Of a DNA stretch of 64,000 nucleotides, positions 10,939 through 50,374 are shown piece by piece. Every line of letters begins with the position of its first letter. Within the stretch, counting starts at the first letter, position 1. Made by a program: the position numbers and the translations under genes. Below the pieces are notes generated by a model, which worked only from the letters and a program-made list of their open reading frames with translations, did no database searches and was not told the origin of the DNA. The DNA comes from an uncultured bacterium (GTDB lineage Bacteria; Hinthialibacterota; Hinthialibacteria; OLB16), in NCBI GenBank assembly GCA_964481775.1, contig CAYZUX010000008.1, positions 169 to 64,168 of the forward strand, in the 5' to 3' direction.

Positions 10939-11670
10939 TTAGCATGGGAGCGCTGAAGTCTCACCCCACACGGCGCGTTGGATGACCGCTTTCTCCAATC
11001 CCCGCAGATTCCCAGTCCGTTTTCCGCAACAGATTTCGTCTTTCAAATTTCCGGGGACTGGCACCGATAATCCATGCAGCTCGCAAACACCTTCCCATAA
11101 AATCTCAAGGTCCTCCAACCGTTCACTCAAGGAAGGAAGACATATTTCAAGACAGCGGATTCGTGAAAGCAGATCCGGCCGGAACTGTCCCAGGCGGGCT
11201 TCCTGCTCGAGGTCTCTGTTTGTGGCGCAGATCAGGCGCACATCAATTTGTCTGAGTGCTTGTGCCCCCAGGCGTTCAAGCCTTCCCCGGTCCAAAATTT
11301 TGAGCAGCATGGGTTGGACCAGGGGATCGAGCTCACCAATCTCATCAAGGAACAGAGTTCCTCCATGAGCCAGCTCGAAACATCCCTTGTGAAGTCGATC
11401 CGCCCCGGTGAAAGCTCCCTTCTCATGCCCAAACAGGAGCGAGTGAACCATGGAATTTCCATTCCAGCAGGAAGCATTGACCTCGATGAAGGGAGCCCGA
11501 TGGCGTGGGGAAAGATGGTGGATCCATTCGGCCGCAGCTTGCTTTCCGGTCCCGGACTCTCCCGTCAGCAGGATCGGGTAGTGAGTTTTCGCCGCCCGGC
11601 TGAGAAGCTCCCGTGTCTGCACAATGGCAGGGCTGTCACCCCGCAGGGGAAAGGGAATAAGCATAGGCAC
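10939..11670 (-). CDS. Stand-alone sigma-54 interaction (bEBP AAA+) domain protein, no sensor domain and no HTH
   Basis: Walker A GESGTGKQ, GAFTGA loop, Walker B LFLDEI and FRPDLLSRI. The protein ends just after a degenerate sensor II (GNLRGLE). SD AAGGAGG precedes the GTG start. Confidence 0.88.
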   Translation of the reverse strand: MPMLIPFPLRGDSPAIVQTRELLSRAAKTHYPILLTGESGTGKQAAAEWIHHLSPRHRAPFIEVNASCWNGNSMVHSLLFGHEKGAFTGADRLHKGCFELAHGGTLFLDEIGELDPLVQPMLLKILDRGRLERLGAQALRQIDVRLICATNRDLEQEARLGQFRPDLLSRIRCLEICLPSLSERLEDLEILWEGVCELHGLSVPVPGNLKDEICCGKRTGNLRGLEKAVIQRAVWGETSALPC

Positions 11671-18345: not shown

Positions 18346-18834
18346 ATGAAAGAAGCACTCAAGATCGAGATTGAGGATCGGAATCCGCTCACGATTGTCC
18401 ATCTGTTCGGGGCATTGGCGGCGATGGAGGTTTACAGGGTCAAGGCGATGACGGATGCCTGGCTCCGTGAAGGCAGGAAATACATCGCCCTTGACATGGT
18501 CTATGTCAGTTTTCTGGATAGTGCCGGTATCGGACTTCTCCTCCAACTGCGCAATAACTGTCAGTCCGCGGGAGGGGGAATGGTTCTGGTCCGTTCGGCG
18601 GAGAACCAGGTGATGCGGACCCTTGAAACCGCCTCGATTGAGAAACTGATCCCTTTTTTCAATGATCTGCAGAATGCACTCAATTATATTCAAACTACAT
18701 TCGGTATTTGTTTGACACCGACCCCAGCTTCGTCTCCCTCGGGGGATCTCGAGGAGACCCTCAGGAGCCTGGCTGTACGTCTTGGGCGAGTGGAAGAACG
18801 ACTCGGACGAATTGAGGCCAAACTGGAGGTGTAG
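18346..18834 (+). CDS. STAS-domain protein (anti-sigma antagonist type) with C-terminal coiled coil
   Basis: VSFLDSAGIGLL retains the phospho-Ser motif; C-terminal heptads LRSLAVRLGRVEERLGRIEAKL. Confidence 0.85.
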   Translation: MKEALKIEIEDRNPLTIVHLFGALAAMEVYRVKAMTDAWLREGRKYIALDMVYVSFLDSAGIGLLLQLRNNCQSAGGGMVLVRSAENQVMRTLETASIEKLIPFFNDLQNALNYIQTTFGICLTPTPASSPSGDLEETLRSLAVRLGRVEERLGRIEAKLEV

Positions 18835-34674: not shown

Positions 34675-35787
34675 ATGAGAAGCGATCTTCCCTTTCTGGT
34701 ACGCGCCCGTGCTCCAGTGCGTGTGGATCTTGCGGGTGGATGGACCGATGTGGCTGAGTTTTGTGAAACCACCCCGGGGGGTGTGGTGAATGTCGCCATC
34801 GACCTGTGTTCGACCGTGACGGTTATGGCCAGGACTACCAAGGTCGAGGCGGGTAGCCGGGGATGGACACTGCATTCACGGCTGGAAGATGAATCGGTGG
34901 AAATCTACTCCGCTGATTTTGATATCTACATTGAAGCCAAGCGGGTGGCGGACCTGGAGTACGATGGGAATGTGGATCTGGTGAAAGCAGCTATCAAGGA
35001 GATGGACCTGCCGGGAGGATTCACACTCATCACTGAGAGCACCGCTCCACCCGGCAGTGGATTGGGAACCAGTGCATCGCTTGGGGTTGCACTCCTGGGA
35101 GCCCTTGCCAAATATGCGGGGAAACCCTTTCTCCCATCGGAGATCGCTGAGCTGGGCAGCTCCATTGAAAGAAAACGGCTGGGAATTCGTGGCGGCAAGC
35201 AAGACCACTATGCCAGTGCGCTGGGGGGTCTGGAATTCATGGAGTTTCGTGGTGAGGATGTTAAAGCCTCTCACTTGATCACCTCGCGCAGTGTCCTTCG
35301 GGAACTGGAGTGCAACCTGGTTTTGATCTACACCGGCAAGTCCCGTCTTTCGGGAGACATCCACCAAAGGGTCAGTGATGCCTATCACTCGGGGCGTGGT
35401 GAGACTCACGATGCCATCGAGGAAATGAAACGGATCGCCCGGGAGATGAAAGACGCCCTGATTCTGGACGATCTGGATGCGGTTGGACCCTTGATGAGCC
35501 GTAACTGGGAGTGCCAGAAAAAACTGCATCCGGATGTCACCAATCCCACCATCGATCACCTGTTTGAGGTTGCGATGACCTCCGGAGCCTCGGGAGGGAA
35601 AGCCTGTGGTGCGGGTGGAGGAGGCTGCCTCGTGTTCATCTGTGGTCCGCATGATACGCACCGCTTAAAAAGAGCGCTCCGTGCGGTTCCGGGAGTCCAG
35701 GTTCTACCGGTCCGGATCGATTCGCGTGGACTTGATAACTGGGATCCCCCTTTACCAGCCAGTTTTGGAGGTGATTCGATCTCCTGA
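34675..35787 (+). CDS. GHMP-family sugar kinase (HddA/fucokinase-like)
   Basis: RAPVRVDLAGGWTD, PPGSGLGTS, GKQDHYASALGG and GKACGAGGGG. Confidence 0.88.
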   Translation: MRSDLPFLVRARAPVRVDLAGGWTDVAEFCETTPGGVVNVAIDLCSTVTVMARTTKVEAGSRGWTLHSRLEDESVEIYSADFDIYIEAKRVADLEYDGNVDLVKAAIKEMDLPGGFTLITESTAPPGSGLGTSASLGVALLGALAKYAGKPFLPSEIAELGSSIERKRLGIRGGKQDHYASALGGLEFMEFRGEDVKASHLITSRSVLRELECNLVLIYTGKSRLSGDIHQRVSDAYHSGRGETHDAIEEMKRIAREMKDALILDDLDAVGPLMSRNWECQKKLHPDVTNPTIDHLFEVAMTSGASGGKACGAGGGGCLVFICGPHDTHRLKRALRAVPGVQVLPVRIDSRGLDNWDPPLPASFGGDSIS

Positions 35788-36034
35788 AGTTAGAACCAGA
35801 GGCAGTGGATTCCTTTCTTTGTGAAGATGATTCCGTACAGATGAATCACGCGAAGAACGATTTTTATGTGAATCTCACAAAACCGGGAATCCATGGTGAT
35901 CGGGGAGTTCTAGGGAATCGCTTAGATCGAGAAAATACTCTACAATCGGGTGTAGCAGTCCGATATAAAAAACATTCGCTATACCGCTCTCTGGTGGAGT
36001 TCTTCCAAGTGGAGTGTAAGAAAGCGCCACATCC

Positions 36035-38356
36035 ATGACCCCTACTCCCTTCGAAGTTGAGAAGATGGTTAAAAAGAATACTGTCATTCTCAGACTGAGC
36101 GGGATGCTGAACACCGAAACCCGTGCTGATCTGGAACCTTATGTCGAGGAACTCGATTCATCACAGAATCTTCAGGAAGTCATCCTCAACCTGGATCGCC
36201 TGACCCATATCGATTCACGGGGACTTTCCACCCTTCTCTCCATGCACCGCCGGTTTACAGAGCGGGATGTCGGGTTCCGCCTGGTGAATGTCAACGATTA
36301 TGTCCTGCGGCTCTTCCAGGTCTCCAATCTGGTCAACCTGTTTGAGATCGGTCCCCCACCCCAAGACCATGCTTCCCTTGTCCACGACCGCCGTGAAGCG
36401 CTGTGGCAATCCCATGCTTTTACGACGCAACTGCTGGCGGCACTGGGAGAGGCGGTTCTTGGTGTGGATGCGGATGGAAGGGTGTTGTTTGTCAATCCAG
36501 CCGCGGAACGCCTTCTGGGTTGGGAGGAAGCAGACCTGTTGGGCCGGGTTCTCTCGGATGCCTTGAATCCGCGTGACCAGTCTGGACGTCCGGTACTGAT
36601 GGCCTTGTCTCCCCACCCGGCCTTGGAAGAAACACAAAACCCGGTTGTCCGTGTGGAGGTGACACTCCATAAACGATCTGGAGAAACCACCGAGGTGGAA
36701 TGGGTTGCAACCACGATTTTCCAGGCGGGTCAACGGATTGGCCGCGTGATTGGAATCCGTGATCTCAGTCAACGGCGCAGGGCGCAGGATGAGGTAAAAC
36801 GTCTCGCCACGGCGGTGGATCAAGCTGCCGAAATGATCGTGGTTACCGATCCCGATGGGGTAGTCCAGTATGTGAATCCGGCTTTTGAGAGAGTGACTGG
36901 TTACTCCCGGGAAGAAGCGGTTGGCAAGCGGACGAACATCCTCAGTTCAGGGGTTCACGACCAGGCGTTTTTCGAGGATCTCTGGCGTACCATTCGAGGG
37001 GGACGTGTTTGGACAGGACGGTTCATGAACCGCCGCAAGGATGGCAGGCTCTATGAAGAGGAAGCCACCATCTCGCCGGTCCATGATGCCGCGGGCGCCA
37101 TCATCAATTTTGTGGCGGTGAAACGGGACATTACCCAGGAGGTTCTTCTTGAGCAGCAACTGCGTGAATCGCAGAAATTCGAGGCGATCGCTCAGCTTGC
37201 AGGCGGTATCGCTCATGATTTCAACAACCTGCTCACCTCGGTGATTGGAAACATCCAACTGGCCAAGATCAAGAAAAAAGGAGATGTCACCGCTTACCTT
37301 GAGAAAGCTGAACAGGCCTGTCTGAGAGGAGCTTCGCTTGTTCAGCAGTTGTTGCTCTATAGCCGTAAGTCCACTTCCACCAAAGAGCGAGTCAGCCTCA
37401 ATTCGATTGTTCGTGAGGTCCTCGCGCTTGCCCGTGAGACTATTGACCGGCGGATCGAGTTTAAGGTGGAATTACACCAACAGCTCCCCCCGGTTCGTGC
37501 TGACTCGGGGCAAATGCACCAGGTCCTGTTGAACCTGGTGCTGAATGCACGCGATGCAGTTGAAGACCGTCGTGTTGCGGAATCGTCCACTGAGAAAAAG
37601 CCGACAACGCCTTTTGAGCAGAAGATCACAGTCAAGACGGATATTGTGTCTCCTGATTCTCAAAAGATTCCCAAAGATGCCCTTCCACCCGCGGAGGATT
37701 ATGTAGTTCTGACTGTGTCTGATACCGGAACTGGTATGGACAGTAAAACTCGTCAGCATCTTTTTGAGCCATTTTTTACGACCAAAGAGGTGGGGAGGGG
37801 AACCGGACTGGGATTGGCAACCGCATATGGAATCGTGAGAAACCATGGAGGATGGGTGGAGGTCCAAAGCAGTCCAGGGGTCGGTTCCACATTCAATGTA
37901 TACCTGCCTGCTGACATGGCCTCCAAAGTTGATCAGTCACAGCAGGTGGTTTTGGAACCGGTTCCAGGGGGGAATGAGACGATTCTTGTGGTAGATGATG
38001 AGATCTCGATCTGTGAGGTGGCCAAGGATATCCTGGAAGGCCACGGATATCAGGTTCTGATTGCCTTGGATGGCGTTGAGGGGTTAGACATCTATTCCCG
38101 TGAGATGGCCCATGTGGATTTGGTTATTCTGGATCTCTCGATGCCGAAGTTGTCTGGAAGGGAAGTTCTGGAACGTCTTAAGGCCTTGAATCCTTCTGTC
38201 CGTGTGATCATTTCGAGCGGTTACCTGGGCGATGATATCCACTCGACCGCCAGCGATTGTGTGTTTGTCCAGAAACCCTACAGGACCGATGACCTCCTCA
38301 GGGGGGTACGTGAAGCTTTGGATCGATTACCACTGAAGTCATTACGTTCTGCTTAG
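36035..38356 (+). CDS. Hybrid histidine kinase STAS-PAS-PAS-HisKA-HATPase-REC
   Basis: STAS (THIDSRGL), two PAS (VNPAAE; VNPAFERVTGYS..RRKDG), H-box GIAHDFNNLL, N-box NLVLNARDA, G boxes FEPFFTTK/GTGLGL, REC ILDLSMP. Confidence 0.93.
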   Translation: MTPTPFEVEKMVKKNTVILRLSGMLNTETRADLEPYVEELDSSQNLQEVILNLDRLTHIDSRGLSTLLSMHRRFTERDVGFRLVNVNDYVLRLFQVSNLVNLFEIGPPPQDHASLVHDRREALWQSHAFTTQLLAALGEAVLGVDADGRVLFVNPAAERLLGWEEADLLGRVLSDALNPRDQSGRPVLMALSPHPALEETQNPVVRVEVTLHKRSGETTEVEWVATTIFQAGQRIGRVIGIRDLSQRRRAQDEVKRLATAVDQAAEMIVVTDPDGVVQYVNPAFERVTGYSREEAVGKRTNILSSGVHDQAFFEDLWRTIRGGRVWTGRFMNRRKDGRLYEEEATISPVHDAAGAIINFVAVKRDITQEVLLEQQLRESQKFEAIAQLAGGIAHDFNNLLTSVIGNIQLAKIKKKGDVTAYLEKAEQACLRGASLVQQLLLYSRKSTSTKERVSLNSIVREVLALARETIDRRIEFKVELHQQLPPVRADSGQMHQVLLNLVLNARDAVEDRRVAESSTEKKPTTPFEQKITVKTDIVSPDSQKIPKDALPPAEDYVVLTVSDTGTGMDSKTRQHLFEPFFTTKEVGRGTGLGLATAYGIVRNHGGWVEVQSSPGVGSTFNVYLPADMASKVDQSQQVVLEPVPGGNETILVVDDEISICEVAKDILEGHGYQVLIALDGVEGLDIYSREMAHVDLVILDLSMPKLSGREVLERLKALNPSVRVIISSGYLGDDIHSTASDCVFVQKPYRTDDLLRGVREALDRLPLKSLRSA

Positions 38357-38539
38357 TTCTAACCAAGTCTGATTCTTTTTGAACACGGTTTTGAGGCATG
38401 GTCCTCCAGGTTACCTGTATTTATTCCAATCACATCCCCGAAGTCCCAGATTCGCAACTTGAACAGGAACAAGCCAAAGCGAACCGCCCCCGCCATTGAC
38501 GGTCATTGAGATCCCATCCAGATCGAGTTCCGGGATTAT

Positions 38540-38556
38540 CTGGCCTGAATCATGCT
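38540..38556 (+). promoter_or_regulatory. Possible sigma-54 -24/-12 element upstream of the PII gene
   Basis: CTGGCCTGAATCATGCT has GG-N10-GC spacing, but the implied start site (about 38567) falls only 3-6 nt before the start codon. Confidence 0.25.
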
Positions 38557-38569
38557 TTAGAAGGGAAAT

Positions 38570-38908
38570 GTGGTGCAATCTGAACTGCTGGAGATTCTTT
38601 TACGCCCCGAAATGGTCGGGGAGGTTTTGGAGCTTCTCGACCATTTGGATGTCGAGTGGGTCTGTTATGGCAATGTCCAGGGCACCGGCAGGCAACGAGG
38701 CCACACCGAGATCTTCCGGGGGCGTGAGTATTCCATAGAACCCCTCCCCAAGGTCCGGCTCGAAATACTGCTGGATGATCCTACCCGTCGTGAGGAGGTC
38801 ATCCGTCAGGTTCGGGATTGTGTCCACACAGGGCGAATCGGTGATGGGAAAGTTTTTGTGATGCGGGTGGAGGTTCCTGGCCAAAACTCAAGTGTTCCCA
38901 CCGCCTAG
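38570..38908 (+). CDS. glnB: Divergent P-II family nitrogen regulator (GlnB/GlnK-like)
   Basis: T-loop [25 protein letters not shown] and B-loop [12 protein letters not shown]; immediately upstream of glnA. Confidence 0.85.
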
Positions 38909-38970
38909 ATACGGCTTCAGTTTCCGTTTATCGAGACGGAATAGCAATAAACAAACAACAGGAGGTTCAC

Positions 38971-40383
38971 ATGGACGCAAAGGGTGTACTTAAATTCATC
39001 AAGGAGAAAGGGGCGAAGTTTGTTGATTTCAAGTTCATGGATTTCATTGGAACCTGGCAGCATTTCACTGTTCCCGAGGCTGAAGTCAGCGAATCCAGTT
39101 TCGAGGATGGATATGGTTTTGATGGTTCCAGTATCCGTGGATGGCAGGCGATCAATGAGTCCGACATGCTGTTGCTTCCTGATCCAGCGACAGCATTCCT
39201 GGATCCTTTCTACACGATTCCAACCGTTTCACTGACCTCAACCATTCTGGATCCAATCACCAAAGAACCCTATTCACGCGATCCTCGCTCGATCGCTCTT
39301 AAAGCTGAGGCTTACCTCAAGAGCACCGGCCTGGCGGACACCGCCTTTTTTGGACCCGAGGCTGAGTTTTTCTGCTTCGACAATGTCCAGTATGGCAGCT
39401 CGGCCAACCAGGCCTTCTATTCAGTGGATTCGAATGAGGGGACCTGGAACACAGGCCGTGCTGAGAATCCCAATTTGGGTCACAAACCGCGCCACAAGGA
39501 GGGATACTTCCCCTGCCCGCCTTCCGATGAGCTCGCAAATTTCCGTCAGGATGTGGTTGCCACGCTGTTGGAACTGGGGGTAGCGGTTGAGGCCCACCAT
39601 CATGAGGTCGCCACTGGTGGGCAGTGCGAAATCGATCTGCGCTTCTCGCCACTCGTTCGTATGGCGGATGCCCTGATGACCTACAAATACACAGCCAAGA
39701 ACATCGCCAAGAAGCATGGCAAGACAGTCACCTTTATGCCCAAGCCTCTCTTCGGTGACAATGGTTCCGGAATGCATGTCCACGTCTCCCTTTGGAAGGG
39801 CGGCACTCCGCTCTTTGCGGGCAGCGGTTATGCGGGACTTTCTGACATGGCCCTGAACTTTATCGGCGGTCTGTTGAAACATGCCGCCTCGATTCTGGCC
39901 TTCGCCGCGCCGGGGACCAACTCCTACCGCCGTCTGGTTCCCGGGTATGAAGCACCAGTCAATCTGGCCTATTCACAGCGTAACCGCAGTGCCGCCTGCC
40001 GTATCCCGATGTACTCGCCCTCGCCCAAGGCGAAACGTGTCGAGTTCCGTCCGCCCGACCCGAGCTGCAATCCTTACCTGACCTTCTCGGCCATCCTCAT
40101 GGCCGGCCTGGATGGAATCCAGAACAAGATCGATCCAGGCGATCCGCTCGACAAAAACATTTACGACCTTCCGCCGGAGGAGCTGGCTGCGGTTCCAAGT
40201 GTGCCGGGTTCATTGTCCGAGGCTTTGGATGCTCTGGAGAAAGATCACCAGTACCTGCTCAAAGGTGATGTCTTTACTCAGGATGTGATTGACACTTGGA
40301 TCGAGTACAAGCGGAGCAATGAAGTGGATCCAATCCGCCTGCGCCCGCACCCTTACGAGTTCCACCTGTATTTCGACGCATAA
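38971..40383 (+). CDS. glnA: Glutamine synthetase type I (adenylylatable form)
   Basis: [63 protein letters not shown] and NIYDLPPEE (Tyr adenylylation site). Confidence 0.98.
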
Positions 40384-40400
40384 GACAAAGGACCAGTCCT

Positions 40401-40436
40401 GGCCCTCTCCCTGTTGCATGGAGAGGGCCGGTTTTC
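40401..40436 (+). terminator. Hairpin after glnA
   Basis: GGCCCTCTCC-ctgttgcat-GGAGAGGGCC followed by ggttttc. Confidence 0.6.
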
Positions 40437-40617
40437 AGTCATCAAGCCGCCCGCGCCCCGGTGAGGTCTAAAGCCCGCCGGGGCGCTCTTCGTGGGCCAG
40501 CCAGCCAGAGGATGATTGTTTCACATCTATCCAAATCTTCTGAAAGATTCATGGTTGTTTAACTCCCCACGATCAAGTCGATTCCTCTCTCTTCGATAAG
40601 GAAGGGGTGTATATCTG

Positions 40618-41001
40618 TTATGAGATAATCTGTTTACTGATAGGTGGGAATCTGGATGGGTTCTTGATAGATTCAACTGAAAGGTCCACATCCAAAGCGG
40701 GCCAATACAAGTGATTGGGTGTCAAGGCCTCAACCTCTGTAATCTGCGCGATGGTGGCTTCACGGAACCAAGGAAATTCTGAGAACGGAAGAAAGAATTC
40801 ATCTTCGTTCTCATCGCCCAAACGCTGCGCTCGATGGATGTCACGCTCAGAGAGCCCATGGCTCGCCGCAAGCACAATTTCTGGTTCGAGCCAGAAATTG
40901 GCCTCTCCTCCATGTCCGATTGTGTGAACAGGGATTCACCTTTCTTCCCGTGAAAAGAAGAAAAAGCGGAATCCATCCTCGATGAAAACAGCCGGTGCCA
41001 T
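40618..41001 (-). pseudogene. Fused remnant of a DUF4160-DUF2442 gene pair (putative toxin-antitoxin) with internal TGA
   Basis: One frame reads MAPAVFIEDGFRFFFFSREER-TGA(40936-38)-IPVHT..ANFWLEPEIVLA (DUF4160-like), joined directly to FFLPFSEFPWFREATI..HLYWPALDVDLSVESIKNPSRFP (DUF2442-like). Confidence 0.8.
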
Positions 41002-41072
41002 CGAAGTGTGCAATATCATCTCATCCATCGACACCTCCACGATGCGGTTTGTTGGAGTTGCCAGAACGCCCC

Positions 41073-44000
41073 TCAATACCCCTCCCACGCCTTGATCTCA
41101 GCGGGCGGAACCCCGAATGAGATGGTCTCCGTTTCGAGTTCATGGACAAATCGAATCAACAGGTGAGGAGACTTGGTCTGCCAACCTTCGGAAGTGGTAT
41201 CGATGTTGGTCACCTTGGGGAGTGTGGTTTCCCCCTCCCAGACATTCCCGCCCACTGGTTGTGTCCACCCCGCCACAAGCAGGCGTGTGGTCTCCCCTAC
41301 CTTGTTTTTAATATTCAGAGAGATGTACTGACCGGGGACAAACGATTGGACAGTCATATCATCCACAAGACCGGTTATAAGAACTGTACCGGTCTGGGAT
41401 GCCTGTGCTGAACCCAGCTGGAGCGTGGTCAGCTCAGGTGACTTGTCCAGCATGAAATAGACATTTTTGAGGATATCCTCGGGATTGATATAGACCGGTT
41501 GAGGATTGTTACCCACCATGTTCCAGCCATCCGGGTAGGTTCCCATGAGAGAACCGGGGGTGACGACCTGTTGATGGATCCCGCTGGTAGCAACACCCTC
41601 CGCAATGGTGCGCCAGTCATAGGAGGAATCATGATTCGCCAGCAGGAAGAGAGCATGCGAATAGACCAGTCCGTTCCATTGGACTGCCTTGCCAAACCAG
41701 GAGCCGGTATAGAAGGTAGCGCCGAACACCGGCACACTCCCATAGCGCATGGTGGTCCGGTCGGGTGGATTCCAGAACCACAGGAATGGCAATCCCGCTC
41801 TGGCCCAGTAGATGGCTTCATCCAGGTAGCTGCTGTCCCCAAAGGCTTCATAACCGGCCACAAAGGCCTCCACCGCCTGTCCGGCAGCGAGGAGATCCGG
41901 TGTGTGTTGAGGGATCTCCCAGGTCTGCGCAGCGCGTGGCACGGTGAAGGTCTTCATGTGTTCCAAGGAACGTTTTCCGCCATTCAGGAAATCTGCCCGT
42001 TTGAGCTGCCGTCCCATGCTGAGTAATTGATAGGCACGTCGTGCGGTCCAACCCAGCTCCCGGTCATTGGCGTCATATAAGCTTGGGTCCCCAAAGGGAG
42101 GATAGGAGCCATCGTTACGCAGTTGGGAGATCTGTCCCAGGCCCATCGAGACCATTGAGTTGATGCCGGCATTCATTTCTCCAAAAACGAAGGGAGCCTG
42201 GACACCAAAAATGTGTAAACCGGATTGACTGGTGAGAACTGAGGCTCCGCTGGTCTGGATGTAGTACTGAATTGCCTCAAGGGCACGGTCTTTCGCTGTG
42301 ATGCTGCCGGTGGTGAGGTAATCGAGCCAGAGGAGATAGGCGAATCCCGGCGTCTGGCTACAACTGAATCCGGTGGCGTGTTGCCAGCATTTCGTATCCT
42401 CTCCCCACAGGGTGGTCAGGAAAGCCTCGCGGGAGGCCACTACAGTTTCCTCGAGAGTCCGGGGCAGGGGATAAGGCGGTGGCTGATGGCCATGCAGATC
42501 CAGCCACTGATCCACCAGGTCGAGGATCGTTGTACAGGTGGCCTGAACGACAATCCGGGTACTCAGGTGAACAGTTTCTCCGGTTTTCATGGGGTAGGGG
42601 TTTGCAGCATGAAGCGAGTTGACCGGCACAAAGTCAGGGATGGAGGGAGCAAAGATTTCAAGGCGGTGATTTTCCTGGCCATCCAGGAAATTTGGTGAAG
42701 CGAATAAGGCAGTCGGTTTGATCTTTCCCTCCGCCCACTCCTGAGTCGCTTCCCAGACCAGCCCAGCCAGCAGATTGTCTGGAGTGAGCACACCCATTCC
42801 GGGGATCGTGACAAAATGGGGGTCAGGGGCATAACGCAGGTTCTGAGGGGGGGCAATATCCAGAGTGGAGGAGGAAACCTCCCCGGAGATCAGCCATTCG
42901 ACACCAGGGAAAAGGGCCTCCTGCTGTGATGCTCCATAAGCCCGTTCTCCTACCTTGAGGTTGATGGGTGCGAAACGGTACAGATCCACCGCTTGGGAGG
43001 CTGTGAGATGGCCATCGGCCTGCATAAAGGTGCTGTCAGCGCTCACGGCAAGATCGAGTCGATAGGAGGCATTCAAACCCAGGTCTCCCAGGAGGTTGGA
43101 GGTGAACCGGATGGAGGCTGAGTCGGGATTGTCCGATAGAACCTGGGCATTGGAGGGCTGGACCTGAGCCGATTTGAGAAGGGGATTCCCCGGTGCGGCC
43201 AGGATGACATCCCCCACTGGGGAGAGCACACCTGCAAGGAGCCAATCAGCTCCGGAGCTGGAACGGCCATAGAGGTAAATGGGTCCGAATCCACCTGGAT
43301 TGGATACGGCCACGGCCCTTAAGCGTGAGGATTGAAGAACCATGTTGCCGGACGCATCGGTAACTGCGTGGGCATTGTCAGTTGCCGGTATCGAATCAGG
43401 GTCGGGAGGAGGACTCGAGACCAGCACCCGCGCAGATTGGGTATTGTGCGGCGTGCTCCCGCCAAGATCCACCGAGACGTTGATCGTGCGGATCCCGGGA
43501 TCCTGAGAGGCTTGCACACTCCAGGTGGCCTGTTTGGAGGGGCCACCTGGGACCAGGCTACCCACACCATTTTCCAAGTCTGCCGAGAGCAGGGAAATCT
43601 CTGGGGGTAAGGTAAGGGTCAGGGTGGCTGCGGACACTGTTTCGGTCCCAAGGTTTTTCACTTCGGCACGAATCTCGAAGGTTTCCCCTTTCTGAACGAC
43701 ACTCCGGTCTGGCCCGAAAGTGACAAACTGGACATTGTGTTTCGAGGGAAGTACCCAGATCCGGTTGATCCGGAACTGCCCGGTATTCCCCTGGCTGGTC
43801 GGATCGATCCGCAACTGGGTAATGGTCCCTTTCCAGGTCGTGAGGTTTTCCAGCGGGATCTCGTAAACATGGAAATCCACTCCAGCCTGGATATTGAAGT
43901 GGGTCGACTTGGCCTCGCTCCAGACAGGGTCGGTGGAAGTGATCCAGAAAAGCTGGGCGGAGGTACCCACATCCACGCGCATATCCACCACCAGGGAACC

Positions 44001-47363: not shown

Positions 47364-48383
47364 TCAGGTGGAGGAGATGGTTTTTTTCCTCTTTTCAATC
47401 AATTCAACCGACGACGTAAAGACCTTCTCCACCGTCAGGGACTTCATGCACTCGCGCCCAAGCGGGCATTCACGCAGGAAGCAGGGTGAACAGGGGACAT
47501 CAGACTGAAGAACTTTATGATGCGGGGCCTGTGGACCAGTCCAGGAAGAGTCCGTCGATCCGAACAAGGCCACAGCGGGTACCCCCAGGGCGTCGGCCAG
47601 ATGCATCGGGCCGCTGTCATTGGTGATCAGGCAAGTGCATAGCGAAAGGAGGGCCATCATTTCCCTCAGGCTGGTCTGTCCGGAGAGGTTCACCCCTTGG
47701 TTACCAGCCAGACCATCGAGTATGAAAGCACCTTGGTCGTGGTCTTTTTCCGTCCCCAATACCATGACGAAACAACCCTGTCTGGAAAGCCTATGAGCGG
47801 TCTCCCGGAACCACTCCGGTTCCCAGCGCTTGGCCGATCCAAATGCCGCTCCCGGTGTGATACCGAGTAGAGACGTGGAGTCAGTGGCTCCCAACCTGGA
47901 AAGACATTCCTGTGCCCAGCAGATTTCCTTTTCCGAAAGAAAGAGTTCCGGTTGACGGTATATGGGGGCACACCGCCAGGATCTGGGGAGGAGATGAAGG
48001 TAATAGTCCACCATGTGCAGGTATCGTACCCGCGGACCGCAGAAGACTCCGCGGGTTAGCAGAGGCCCTCTCCAGTCGCGCCGGTATCCGATCCGTTCCG
48101 GGATTCCCAGGCTTTTGGCGGTCTTGGCTGATGAGAAGGAATTGGTCAACAGATAGATCCTGTCGAATGCGGTTTCCCTGATTGGTTCGAGAAGCTCCGG
48201 ATTGTTCTTTTCATCCAGAGCGAAAATGAAATCGATGCCGGGGAATTGCTCGAAAAGAACCGCTGTGTGTGCCGGACCCCAAACCGAGCAAGATCCTTCC
48301 TTTTCAATGATCAGGCGGATGGCGGGCACTGCCATCACGGTATCCCCGATCCAGTTGGGTAGACGGACAAGGACTTTGCTCAT
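47364..48383 (-). CDS. waaF: Lipopolysaccharide heptosyltransferase II (GT9)
   Basis: RLPNWIGDTVMA, PGAAFGSAKRW, LSGQTSL, TNDSGPMHLA and CSPCFLRECP. Confidence 0.92.
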   Translation of the reverse strand: MSKVLVRLPNWIGDTVMAVPAIRLIIEKEGSCSVWGPAHTAVLFEQFPGIDFIFALDEKNNPELLEPIRETAFDRIYLLTNSFSSAKTAKSLGIPERIGYRRDWRGPLLTRGVFCGPRVRYLHMVDYYLHLLPRSWRCAPIYRQPELFLSEKEICWAQECLSRLGATDSTSLLGITPGAAFGSAKRWEPEWFRETAHRLSRQGCFVMVLGTEKDHDQGAFILDGLAGNQGVNLSGQTSLREMMALLSLCTCLITNDSGPMHLADALGVPAVALFGSTDSSWTGPQAPHHKVLQSDVPCSPCFLRECPLGRECMKSLTVEKVFTSSVELIEKRKKTISST

Positions 48384-50374
48384 ACCGGCAGGTCTGGGGA
48401 TGGAGAGGATTCGGGGGGAGTCCTCAGGAAGACTTCCATCACCGCGCCTTCCTGGTTGCCCCGGTTGGAAGGGACCAGACGGCCCTGGTGAATATCGACA
48501 ATGATGCTGTGGACCCAGGCCAGGCCCAAACCGCCCTGCCGTTTCTTCGTGGTAAAATCGAAATGGAAAATCTGTTGGAGTTCCACTCCCTCCAGGCGTT
48601 GTCCAAATGGATTCTGGAATCCTGTCCCGTTATCCACCACTCGCAACACTGCCCAGCCATTGGATTGATGGCAGTCGATCTCGACTTTGCCGGGTGGAGT
48701 CGGATGTTCGGCTTGCCTTTCCGCAATCGCCTGAGTCGCATTGGCCAAAAGGTTGAAGAGTACCAGCTTGAGCAGTCTCGGATCTGCATGGGCAACGGGG
48801 CTGGTTTCCCCCTTGAGGAGTTCATAAACCACTTGCCGTGATGTGGAGTGGCGGTAAAGCTCGATGACCTCCGCGACCAGGGAATTGAGATCCACACATT
48901 CGAACTGAGGTTCGCGGGTGTAGCTGAATGCCCGGTAGACATTGACAACCTCCTGAAGCAGTACCGTGGTCCTGCGGAGCCCCTCAACAGCGGCATGAAC
49001 CATCTCTTTCTTCTCTCCCGGGACTTCCACGATGCCACGGCGGAAAGCAGTCCGGAGAGTCTCAAGTTCCAACCGCCCGGTGGCCAGGATATTGGTCAGG
49101 TCATGGCCCATGCTGGCCGAAAGATCGATGCTGACTTCATAACGTCCACGATCCAGAGCCTCCAGACGTTCCAGGGAACGGGTGAGGATTAATCCCAGCT
49201 GACGGACCAGCCCCCGGAAATAGGGTAATGCCAGGCCGGGGGTATCCTCGCTGCGTGGAAGGGCGGCCAGGAGCAGCCCCATCCTTTGGCCACGCCGCTG
49301 GACCACTCCGCCAAACCAGATCCTCGCATGACTGGCAGGATTCCCCATGGATAACTTTCCAGCTGAGGGATCCTGGAAAAGCATGTCCCCTTCGGACTCG
49401 CTGGTTTTTGCGAACCAGGCCAGATCTCCCGGTTCAGGACAAGTGATCTCATCTCCTCCAGATCCTTTCCACCGCGAGAGGATGACATTGGATGCAAGGT
49501 TTTCAGCACCATCGAAGGGTATCCAGGCGGCTCGATCATACCCCATGCCCACCTGAATCAGGTTCATCGCCTCCGTCCAGAATGAGGCATCCTCTCCAGG
49601 GAGTTTTTGGGCGGGCTCTCCCAGGTGTTCGCCCAAATCTGAAAGGTCGAAATGAACAGCGGTCAGACGAGTGCCACGGGCCATGGAGTTGTAGGCTCGT
49701 TCCACCTCGTGCCTGGGGCGTACGATGATGGGGGGAGGCTGATCTGGAGGACTGGCCAGGGCGCGGGCGATCCGTGCCAGAGGGCGGATTGCACCTGTGA
49801 ACAGCAGGAAGGCGATAAGGAGGTTGGAGAGTGTGAAAACAAGGGCATAAACACGGTACTCGATCACCAGGTCGTGAACCTCGGGGATTTCCGGCCAGCT
49901 CACGAGATGAACCCAGACCTCATACCCCTCCGAAACCGTTCCACGTGCGGTGAATTCGAAGTTGCGTGTGAACAGGCAGTTGCTCCAGGTGTTGAAGACC
50001 TTTCTCTTGTCTTCGGCATTGGCTGGTTCTTCGCGGAAAAGCACCTCGCCGGAGGCATTTGTCACCTCGAAGAATACCGCGGGAAAATCGGGTTGGCTGA
50101 TGAGGGTATAGACATCCCTCGAGGCTTGCCGGATCTCCTCCTTCACCACAGCGGATTGGACCAGGCCACTTGCACGGATTCCCTTCATCCGGCGTTGGAT
50201 CTCGGTCAGGGGACGTTTCTTCTCGATGATGATGTCTTTTTTCTTGAGATTGAAATTATTCTCCATCAAGGCAAGCACCAGGATCTCGATCACCACCACA
50301 GCAGCCACGAGTGCCACGGTGAGCAGGCGGAAACGGTAACGCCCCGAAAGTGAACGCACCCTGGTGGAGGTCAT
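48380..50374 (-). CDS. Membrane sensor histidine kinase (TM-periplasmic-TM-HAMP-GAF-like-HisKA-HATPase)
   Basis: Two TMs, IRPLARIA (HAMP), H-box SMGHDLTN, N-box NLLANATQA, DNGTG and DFTTK..GGLGL; ATGA overlap with waaF. Confidence 0.88.
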   Translation of the reverse strand: MTSTRVRSLSGRYRFRLLTVALVAAVVVIEILVLALMENNFNLKKKDIIIEKKRPLTEIQRRMKGIRASGLVQSAVVKEEIRQASRDVYTLISQPDFPAVFFEVTNASGEVLFREEPANAEDKRKVFNTWSNCLFTRNFEFTARGTVSEGYEVWVHLVSWPEIPEVHDLVIEYRVYALVFTLSNLLIAFLLFTGAIRPLARIARALASPPDQPPPIIVRPRHEVERAYNSMARGTRLTAVHFDLSDLGEHLGEPAQKLPGEDASFWTEAMNLIQVGMGYDRAAWIPFDGAENLASNVILSRWKGSGGDEITCPEPGDLAWFAKTSESEGDMLFQDPSAGKLSMGNPASHARIWFGGVVQRRGQRMGLLLAALPRSEDTPGLALPYFRGLVRQLGLILTRSLERLEALDRGRYEVSIDLSASMGHDLTNILATGRLELETLRTAFRRGIVEVPGEKKEMVHAAVEGLRRTTVLLQEVVNVYRAFSYTREPQFECVDLNSLVAEVIELYRHSTSRQVVYELLKGETSPVAHADPRLLKLVLFNLLANATQAIAERQAEHPTPPGKVEIDCHQSNGWAVLRVVDNGTGFQNPFGQRLEGVELQQIFHFDFTTKKRQGGLGLAWVHSIIVDIHQGRLVPSNRGNQEGAVMEVFLRTPPESSPSPDLPV

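Follow-up and report, generated by a model that had tools for sequence, protein, structure and literature searches.

PII proteins and receptor kinases form the core of carbon/nitrogen balance in bacteria, and what is known of PII signalling comes, to our knowledge, almost entirely from Proteobacteria, Cyanobacteria and Firmicutes. In the glnA-ntrBC and glnB-glnA loci of Proteobacteria the PII protein GlnB binds the kinase NtrB to report nitrogen status, and in Azotobacter vinelandii a sensor of the NifL type integrates redox state with a PII signal. Here we describe a locus from an uncultured member of the candidate phylum Hinthialibacterota (=OLB16), which was earlier placed within Omnitrophota (PMC9324843), where a hybrid sensor histidine kinase headed by a STAS domain is encoded directly upstream of a divergent PII gene, termed PII' below, and of glnA. 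In our preferred explanation, to which we give slightly less than an even chance, kinase and PII' function as a pair that was added onto the glnA locus in one bacterial family, with PII' as the dedicated partner of the kinase.

The DNA studied is a stretch of 64,000 nucleotides (nt), referred to as the window, which corresponds to contig C8 of the assembly G000 (6.3 Mb, 94% complete). It was compared with 35 species genomes of the phylum, seven from the family that holds the kinase and 28 from the other five families; G001-G003 belong to the genus of G000, while G004 and G005 represent two further genera of the kinase family. The locus consists of three open reading frames (ORFs) on the + strand, at 36035-38356 (773 amino acids (aa)), 38570-38908 (112 aa) and 38971-40383 (470 aa). 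These are exactly the positions given by an earlier interpretation made from the letters alone (the sequence-only reading), and the STAS-PAS-PAS-HisKA-HATPase-REC architecture that it assigned to the first product was borne out by Pfam.

The second gene (38570..38908, +) was called simply PII in the sequence-only reading and turns out to encode a divergent paralogue. The protein matches the Pfam P-II family at 51 bits (cut-off 25) and scores only 75 and 64 bits against the NCBIfam GlnB and GlnK equivalogs, for which the cut-offs are 181 and 202. In alignments that include the structures 3MHY, 2GW8 and 1HWU, the T-loop tyrosine, residue 54 of the ORF, corresponds to the canonical Y51, and Q39, K58 and the B-loop TGRIGDGK are kept as well. 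The nucleotide site is changed. Here G27 is replaced by W and T29 by C; across the six PII' proteins position 27 is W, V or P and position 29 is C or S, and the C-loop RIRTGE with R101 and R103 has been lost in all six. R101, R103, G27 and T29 are retained in all 29 other PII proteins sampled from the phylum. In PII proteins the γ-phosphate of ATP is held by R101 and R103, and T29 ranks with the best-conserved positions (PMC7919409).

The tree sets the six PII' proteins apart from the other PII of the phylum, as a distinct clade whose very long branch has 100/100 support. Between the same pairs of genomes PII' is 64, 67 and 48% identical, compared with 91, 85 and 79% for the canonical PII of the C12 type, so that PII' diverges roughly two to three times faster. 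The ratio of non-synonymous to synonymous substitution rates is 0.07-0.19 for PII' versus ∼0.03 for glnA, which is still clearly indicative of purifying selection. Among 5.8 billion proteins the PII' subtype comprises about 20 clusters, beyond which matches fall to the generic 45-49% identity of any PII, and the longest contig of at least five of these clusters is equal in length to that of a kinase cluster. Orthologues of PII' were found only in genomes that hold the kinase, and always adjoining it. Judged by its residues and substitution pattern, PII' is thus a PII that has been remodelled and has stayed functional. It occurs next to this kinase and nowhere else, and it appears as the only remodelled PII lineage in the phylum.

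In addition to PII', the genome encodes four canonical 112-aa PII proteins. Two of their genes lie beside amtB. The other two stand in unusual neighbourhoods, one (G000 C21:9444-9725; L182:4436-4774) directly before thiC and one (G000 C12:35240-35515) between genes for a REC-GGDEF protein and a class IV aminotransferase.

The sequence-only reading had listed, as a first ground for refutation, that the adjacency of kinase, PII and glnA is unique to this genome. It is not, as six genomes from three genera (G000 and G001-G005) have the same gene order, with full-length kinase orthologues, including the STAS head, at 86-50% identity. The surroundings are not kept. Here the locus is flanked upstream by a GHMP sugar kinase gene and downstream by a convergent gene for a 1131-aa exported protein, neither of which is nitrogen-related; the GHMP, DUF2961 and 1131-aa genes are already gone in G002, a genome of the same genus, and the outer flanks are rearranged. 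STAS-headed kinases of this type occur in 7/7 genomes of the family and in 0/28 genomes of the other five families, and clusters with this STAS head at kinase length number 14 among the 5.8 billion proteins. A scan of genome contigs found only two close relatives, and a metagenome search with PII' added one further locus (L100), whose identity values suggest the same species as G002. Relatives of the kinase carry the NCBI label "Candidatus Omnitrophica". Outside the family the arrangement differs: families f5 and f6 have a canonical PII gene directly before glnA, with the kinase absent upstream, and in families f2 and f4 glnA and PII are apart. The simplest history is one in which the PII-glnA pair is older and the kinase was added upstream in one family.

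The kinase (36035..38356, +) is defined by its ORF, Pfam matches, hydropathy and the full-length orthologues. Pfam places STAS at residues 10-106, PAS at 134-225 and 256-366, HisKA at 386-445, HATPase_c at 490-627 and Response_reg at 650-755, every match being above its curated cut-off. There is no hydrophobic segment in the protein (the highest 19-residue Kyte-Doolittle mean is 1.27), and the kinase is hence predicted to be cytoplasmic and soluble. The catalytic core (37190..37915, +), delimited by Pfam, NCBIfam and conserved residues, carries its phosphoacceptor candidate H394 (37214-37216) within a CckA-like HDFNNLL box. In the HATPase_c domain the N, G1, F and G2 boxes are intact and a variable insert of ∼45 aa is present. 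Across 10 orthologues H394, N504, D563-G565-G567 (DTGTGM, from 563) and G589-G593 (GTGLGL, from 589) are invariant, as are D654, D655, D700 and K747 of the C-terminal receiver domain (37982..38299, +; Response_reg 60 bits), in which D700 (38132-38134) would be the acceptor aspartate. The H-box histidine, the N, G1, F and G2 boxes and the receiver aspartate and lysine that mark hybrid kinases of the HisKA type are thus all present, and with PRK13557 and CckA as its best NCBIfam matches the protein looks like an active hybrid of the CckA/PRK13557 type. Assignment as NtrB was rejected (NF008293, 94 bits against a cut-off of 240; no gene for a bacterial enhancer-binding protein (bEBP) at the locus), and so was assignment as NifL (TIGR02938, 158 bits against 242, over NifL positions 8-131, that is PAS1 of NifL, only; no nifA nearby). 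Elsewhere in the window (48380-50374, -) a 664-aa protein has a C-terminal HATPase_c domain without a recognised HisKA or sensor domain.

Of the two PAS domains, PAS1 (aa 134-245; 36434..36769, +), identified by Pfam and conservation, gave only weak, generic PAS matches in PDB and no clue to a cofactor. Its N-terminal linker is very conserved: residues 120-170 are near-invariant among orthologues, and no part of the kinase is better conserved than the linker that joins STAS to PAS1. PAS2 (aa 256-366; 36800..37132, +) is a putative flavin domain of the MmoS/NifL/Aer type. The sequence-only reading had likened it to the redox PAS of NifL and MmoS, and the motif quoted there is present. The best PDB matches are MmoS (3EWK, E=1.3e-42; 87 bits for PAS-A) and PAS1 of NifL (2GJ3, E=1.2e-19), which outrank any LOV or haem PAS. 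Pocket residues were mapped onto the alignment of PAS2 with 3EWK and 2GJ3, using the flavin-pocket residues of MmoS listed in PMC9668731. The equivalents of MmoS T103, G107 and N164 are kept as T271, G275 and N332, and W87 of NifL as W317. The position that is H132 in MmoS, E70 in NifL and the cysteine in LOV domains is T300, which varies among orthologues, and that of MmoS R195 is K363. A LOV photoreceptor was ruled out by the threonine at the LOV cysteine position. From the pocket residues and their conservation, binding of a flavin by PAS2 is plausible.

The N-terminal STAS domain (aa 10-106; 36062..36352, +) scores 53 bits in Pfam against a cut-off of 22.6. Its closest solved relatives are SpoIIAA proteins (1TH8, E=6e-10), and in the SpoIIAA alignment Ser61 of the motif IDSRGL (36215-36217), which the sequence-only reading correctly saw as a retained phospho-serine motif, coincides with Ser58 of SpoIIAA, which is phosphorylated there and has been replaced by Ala in the structure 1TID. 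D60, S61, G63 and L64 are invariant across 10 orthologues, which makes Ser61 a candidate phosphorylation site. In all, the genome encodes 18 STAS domains, among them that of a stand-alone 162-aa ORF at 18346-18834 (+) of the window, together with five RsbW-like kinases and five SpoIIE-type PP2C phosphatases. Two of the RsbW-like proteins are orphan response regulators in which a receiver is fused to an RsbW-like HATPase_c_2 domain (G000 C182:9273-10262, L186:4274-5266; G000 C4:44833-45744, L187:4834-5748). This REC-RsbW architecture is that of TciR in the TciK/TciR system of Vogesella indigofera, where it was termed functionally uncharacterised (PMC12826045). Such regulators number two per genome in the kinase family and one in every other family of the phylum. 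The duplication thus tracks the distribution of the STAS-headed kinases; it is a single event in one lineage and serves as a lead only.

STAS-headed kinases are not confined to this locus. When 1.84 billion representatives were searched, the nearest relatives of the STAS domain outside the family were again N-terminal heads of PAS kinases. These STAS-PAS-kinase proteins (P0143, P0158, P0248, P0157, P0142 and P0145) are rare metagenomic singletons which, where annotated, are called "anti-anti-sigma factor" or "NtrC family sensor kinase". A literature search on such STAS-headed kinases found no paper. The architecture is thus real, sparse and unstudied, and it is not tied to nitrogen as such.

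The third gene, glnA (38971..40383, +), encodes a type I glutamine synthetase (GSI) of 470 aa (TIGR00653, 661 bits against a cut-off of 429) and is the only GSI copy found in G000. The enzyme keeps the NxYDLP adenylylation motif, with Tyr398 at 40162-40164, and GlnD/GlnE-type domains are encoded in the genome. The spacer between the kinase and PII' genes measures 213 nt here and 213-245 nt across orthologues; its length is kept, its regulatory blocks start at the stop codon of the kinase gene, and a scan for terminators between the two genes found none. An alignment of the six spacers revealed two conserved upstream elements, TAGTTCTAA...TTTTGAACA (38354..38385, +), with a TGAACA half-site at 38380-38385, and CAACTTGAACAGGAACAAGCCAAAGCGAACC (38453..38485, +), with a half-site at 38460. 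They are followed by a sigma-54-type promoter, TGGCCTGAATCATGCT (38541..38556, +), in which GG (38542-43) and GC (38554-55) have canonical spacing. The motif TGGC-N8-TGCT is conserved in 6/6 orthologous spacers although the surrounding sequence diverges. Since the sigma-54 motif alone is not rare (six in the window against 2.15 expected), it is the conserved position that speaks for this promoter. In all six loci a mere 14-15 nt separate the -12 element from the conserved GTG codon at which PII' starts, so that a transcript made with sigma-54 would have almost no leader ahead of PII', while a strong AGGAGG ribosome-binding site is retained at glnA. A small hairpin (TTCCGTTT...AGACGGAA; 38922..38941, +) is predicted from alignment and folding within the spacer between PII' and glnA, at the same place in 6/6 orthologous loci; it matches no Rfam family, and a search of 35600-41200 found zero Rfam RNA families, hence no glutamine riboswitch.

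Similar promoter elements precede other nitrogen genes of the phylum. In both amtB/glnK operons of G000 a sigma-54-like element is preceded, at a distance of 148-161 nt, by a TG(Y)T(S)A-N4-TGAACA site, and the kinase-less PII-glnA pairs of families f5 and f6 are preceded by TGGCAC-N5-TTGT and TGTTCA-N4-T(G/C)AACA. Because the elements of PII'-glnA are common to the amtB/glnK operons and to the kinase-less families, they point to general nitrogen control that is independent of the kinase. By these motifs, the phylum looks to have a general sigma-54 nitrogen regulon with an activator site that resembles the NifA-type TGT-N10-ACA, and the kinase is a family-specific add-on to general nitrogen control. 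The sigma-54-like elements of the three nitrogen operons of G000 (C125 ∼11650, +; C44 ∼10199, -; window 38541) share the consensus TGGC-N2-G-N-ATC-N-TG[CT], in which the -12 element is frequently TGT and not TGC, and all three operons have the TGAACA-containing site at this same distance ahead of it.

Besides rpoN, the genome contains about 25 Sigma54_activat genes, and the products of at least 13 have a receiver domain. The sequence-only reading's statement that there is no NtrC therefore holds at the locus, where no bEBP gene is found, and does not hold genome-wide, given these activators. Three kinase/REC-bEBP pairs are adjacent (C13, C66 and C9), and their kinases are NtrB-like; no G000 protein reaches the NtrC or NtrB equivalog cut-off, and NCBIfam singles out none of the three pairs as the nitrogen regulator. 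The window itself encodes, at 10939-11670 (-), a sigma-54 activator of 243 aa that comprises only the AAA+ core and lacks a receiver, any other sensor domain and a helix-turn-helix (HTH).

Taking the kinase and PII' as a working pair, we propose the following. A soluble hybrid kinase would have joined the older PII-glnA pair on its upstream side, and the PII copy would then have specialised into PII', a partner that informs the kinase of nitrogen status much as GlnB does for NtrB and GlnK for NifL. With its nucleotide pocket altered, PII' may still read nitrogen status through the T-loop (Tyr51 is kept and GlnD-type genes exist), and it would bind the kinase and shift its kinase/phosphatase balance. 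PAS2 may contribute a flavin redox input and PAS1 a ligand input, and the N-terminal STAS domain could be a docking or phosphorylation site for one of the RsbW-type kinases or PP2C phosphatases of the genome. Phosphate would pass from H394 to D700, then to an Hpt protein, of which a stand-alone form is encoded in the genome (G000 C121:17147-17380), and on to a response regulator encoded elsewhere. Transcription of PII'-glnA would start at the sigma-54 promoter and would be governed by the phylum's general nitrogen activator, and not solely by this kinase. We regard as a long shot a bolder version of the scheme, in which a REC-RsbW-like regulator phosphorylates or sequesters the kinase at Ser61, PII' docks by its T-loop without normal sensing of ATP and 2-oxoglutarate, and the resulting circuit of His-Asp relay, serine switch and PII gates nitrogen assimilation by redox. 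If true, such a closed circuit would be a new wiring of PII signalling.

Several results weigh against a working pair and would suit the main rival reading, unlikely in our estimate, in which the three genes are neighbours by descent only, the kinase being a redox or ligand sensor unrelated to nitrogen and PII' having diverged independently, for example as a regulator specific to glutamine synthetase. The kinase core resembles CckA-type kinases and not NtrB, there are ∼30 paralogous hybrid kinases of the PAS-kinase-REC type per genome, and the PAS2-kinase-REC cassette is generic, with PAS2 at 41-57% identity in five other G000 kinases. STAS-headed kinases also occur in other settings. A second one in G000, STAS-PAS-PAS-GAF-HisKA-HATPase-REC (978 aa; C83, L180:5228-8164, -), adjoins genes for a SurA-like and two unknown proteins and is present only in G000, G001 and G003, and a third type of 1265 aa (G006 C65) has no PII-glnA downstream. 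PII'-glnA has a promoter of its own, whose elements are shared with amtB/glnK and with the kinase-less families, so that glnA transcription needs no special kinase, and the region upstream of the kinase gene is without nitrogen-operon elements. No RsbW-like kinase, PP2C phosphatase or sigma factor gene is linked to the locus. Moreover, every instance goes back to a single evolutionary event within one family, which gives their co-occurrence little statistical weight. The sequence-only reading's idea of a nitrogen circuit built from partner-switching, redox sensing and PII signalling accordingly survives in its architecture, which is real, and not in the nitrogen-specificity of its modules, as the PAS cassette is reused and a STAS-headed paralogue lies elsewhere. 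On the other side, the trio has stayed together across three genera at 50% kinase identity with both flanks rearranged even within a genus, the spacer between kinase and PII' has kept its length with regulatory blocks that begin at the stop codon, and the remodelled PII lineage is found beside the kinase and nowhere without it. It is on these grounds that we prefer the working pair.

Two further alternatives concern the parts of the kinase and its output. The STAS domain may be a dimerisation, scaffold or small-ligand domain, as in RsbR, YtvA and SLC26 transporters, with a serine that is structural and not a phospho-switch. The DSxG motif is kept in many STAS domains that are not known to be phosphorylated, neither an RsbW-like kinase nor a PP2C gene is linked to the locus in any of the orthologous genomes examined, and the high conservation of the STAS-PAS1 linker fits direct conformational coupling. 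Yet the four residues around the serine are invariant, the closest solved relatives are phosphorylatable SpoIIAA proteins, the genome has five kinases and five phosphatases of the appropriate kinds, and the sole family with STAS-headed kinases is also the sole family with a second REC-RsbW-like regulator; we therefore consider this alternative possible and rather doubtful. The kinase might instead act on the HTH-less sigma-54 activator at 10939-11670, one of the end points suggested by the sequence-only reading, either by phosphotransfer or by NifL-like anti-activation. Such a connection would accord with the resemblance of PAS2 to PAS1 of NifL, the sigma-54-type promoter of PII-glnA and the presence of an AAA+-only activator 25 kb away. 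However, that protein covers only positions 135-321 of the NtrC model, and with the receiver absent it is excluded as a phosphoacceptor. The kinase keeps every catalytic motif that NifL can do without, and its resemblance to NifL is below the cut-off and confined to the PAS1 region; the two genes are unlinked, and the conserved upstream elements could not be recognised by an activator that has no DNA-binding domain. We regard this connection as very improbable.

The locus suggests a lineage-specific extra input into nitrogen control. PII' is a natural experiment on the purpose of the nucleotide site, as the T-loop has been kept and the ligands of the ATP γ-phosphate have been lost. The kinase is a candidate for a new PII receptor, a hybrid with a flavin-type PAS, and an uncommon example of a histidine kinase that carries a STAS switch domain at its front. 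If the three parts cooperate, redox state, partner-switching and PII signalling would converge on a single protein; otherwise the locus still shows how a sigma-54 nitrogen regulon with TGT-N10-ACA-like sites is arranged in a candidate phylum without cultured members.

Compared with NtrB/GlnB, the locus likewise places a cytoplasmic PAS-HisKA-HATPase kinase beside glnA and PII, and it shares a glnA with a sigma-54 promoter and upstream activator sites, the adenylylation tyrosine of glutamine synthetase and GlnD/GlnE-type genes. It differs in that no NtrC is adjacent, the hybrid kinase combines a receiver at its C-terminus with a CckA-like H-box, an N-terminal STAS domain and a flavin-type PAS and scores far below the NtrB cut-off, the PII lacks the C-loop arginines, and the upstream elements are of the TGAACA type and are not NtrC sites. 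With the NifL-GlnK-NifA system (2GJ3, 9QQ6) it shares a PAS domain of the flavin adenine dinucleotide (FAD) type, the N-terminal PAS of NifL and the putative flavin domain PAS2 being of one subfamily, and, in the proposed scheme, a sensor on which redox state and a PII signal meet. NifL, however, is inactive as a kinase and works through binding to NifA, whereas here all kinase motifs and a receiver are conserved, no nifA or other nif genes are linked, and the position of NifL E70 is a threonine that varies in orthologues. MmoS of Methylococcus capsulatus (3EWK) is, like the present kinase, a multi-PAS hybrid sensor kinase, and its FAD pocket has the T103, G107 and N164 whose equivalents are kept here. 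It regulates methane monooxygenase and has no STAS domain, and its H132 and R195 are threonine and lysine in PAS2.

The partner-switch proteins SpoIIAA/RsbV and RsbR/YtvA share with the kinase the STAS fold and a phosphorylatable serine in a DSxGL context, and the genome has the RsbW-like kinases and SpoIIE-type phosphatases to match. Here, in contrast, STAS is the N-terminal head of a histidine kinase and neither a stand-alone protein nor a C-terminal output domain, and no anti-sigma kinase or sigma factor is linked. In TciK/TciR (PMC12826045) and SypE/SypA two-component signalling is joined with partner-switch parts, as it may be in this genome with its two TciR-like proteins, although these have no genetic linkage to the kinase and a shared phyletic pattern is the sole connection. 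All parts of the locus are hence of known kinds, namely a hybrid kinase, an FAD-type PAS, a STAS domain, a PII protein, a GSI and a sigma-54 promoter. It is their combination that is new, above all that of a PII without its C-loop and a STAS-headed kinase.

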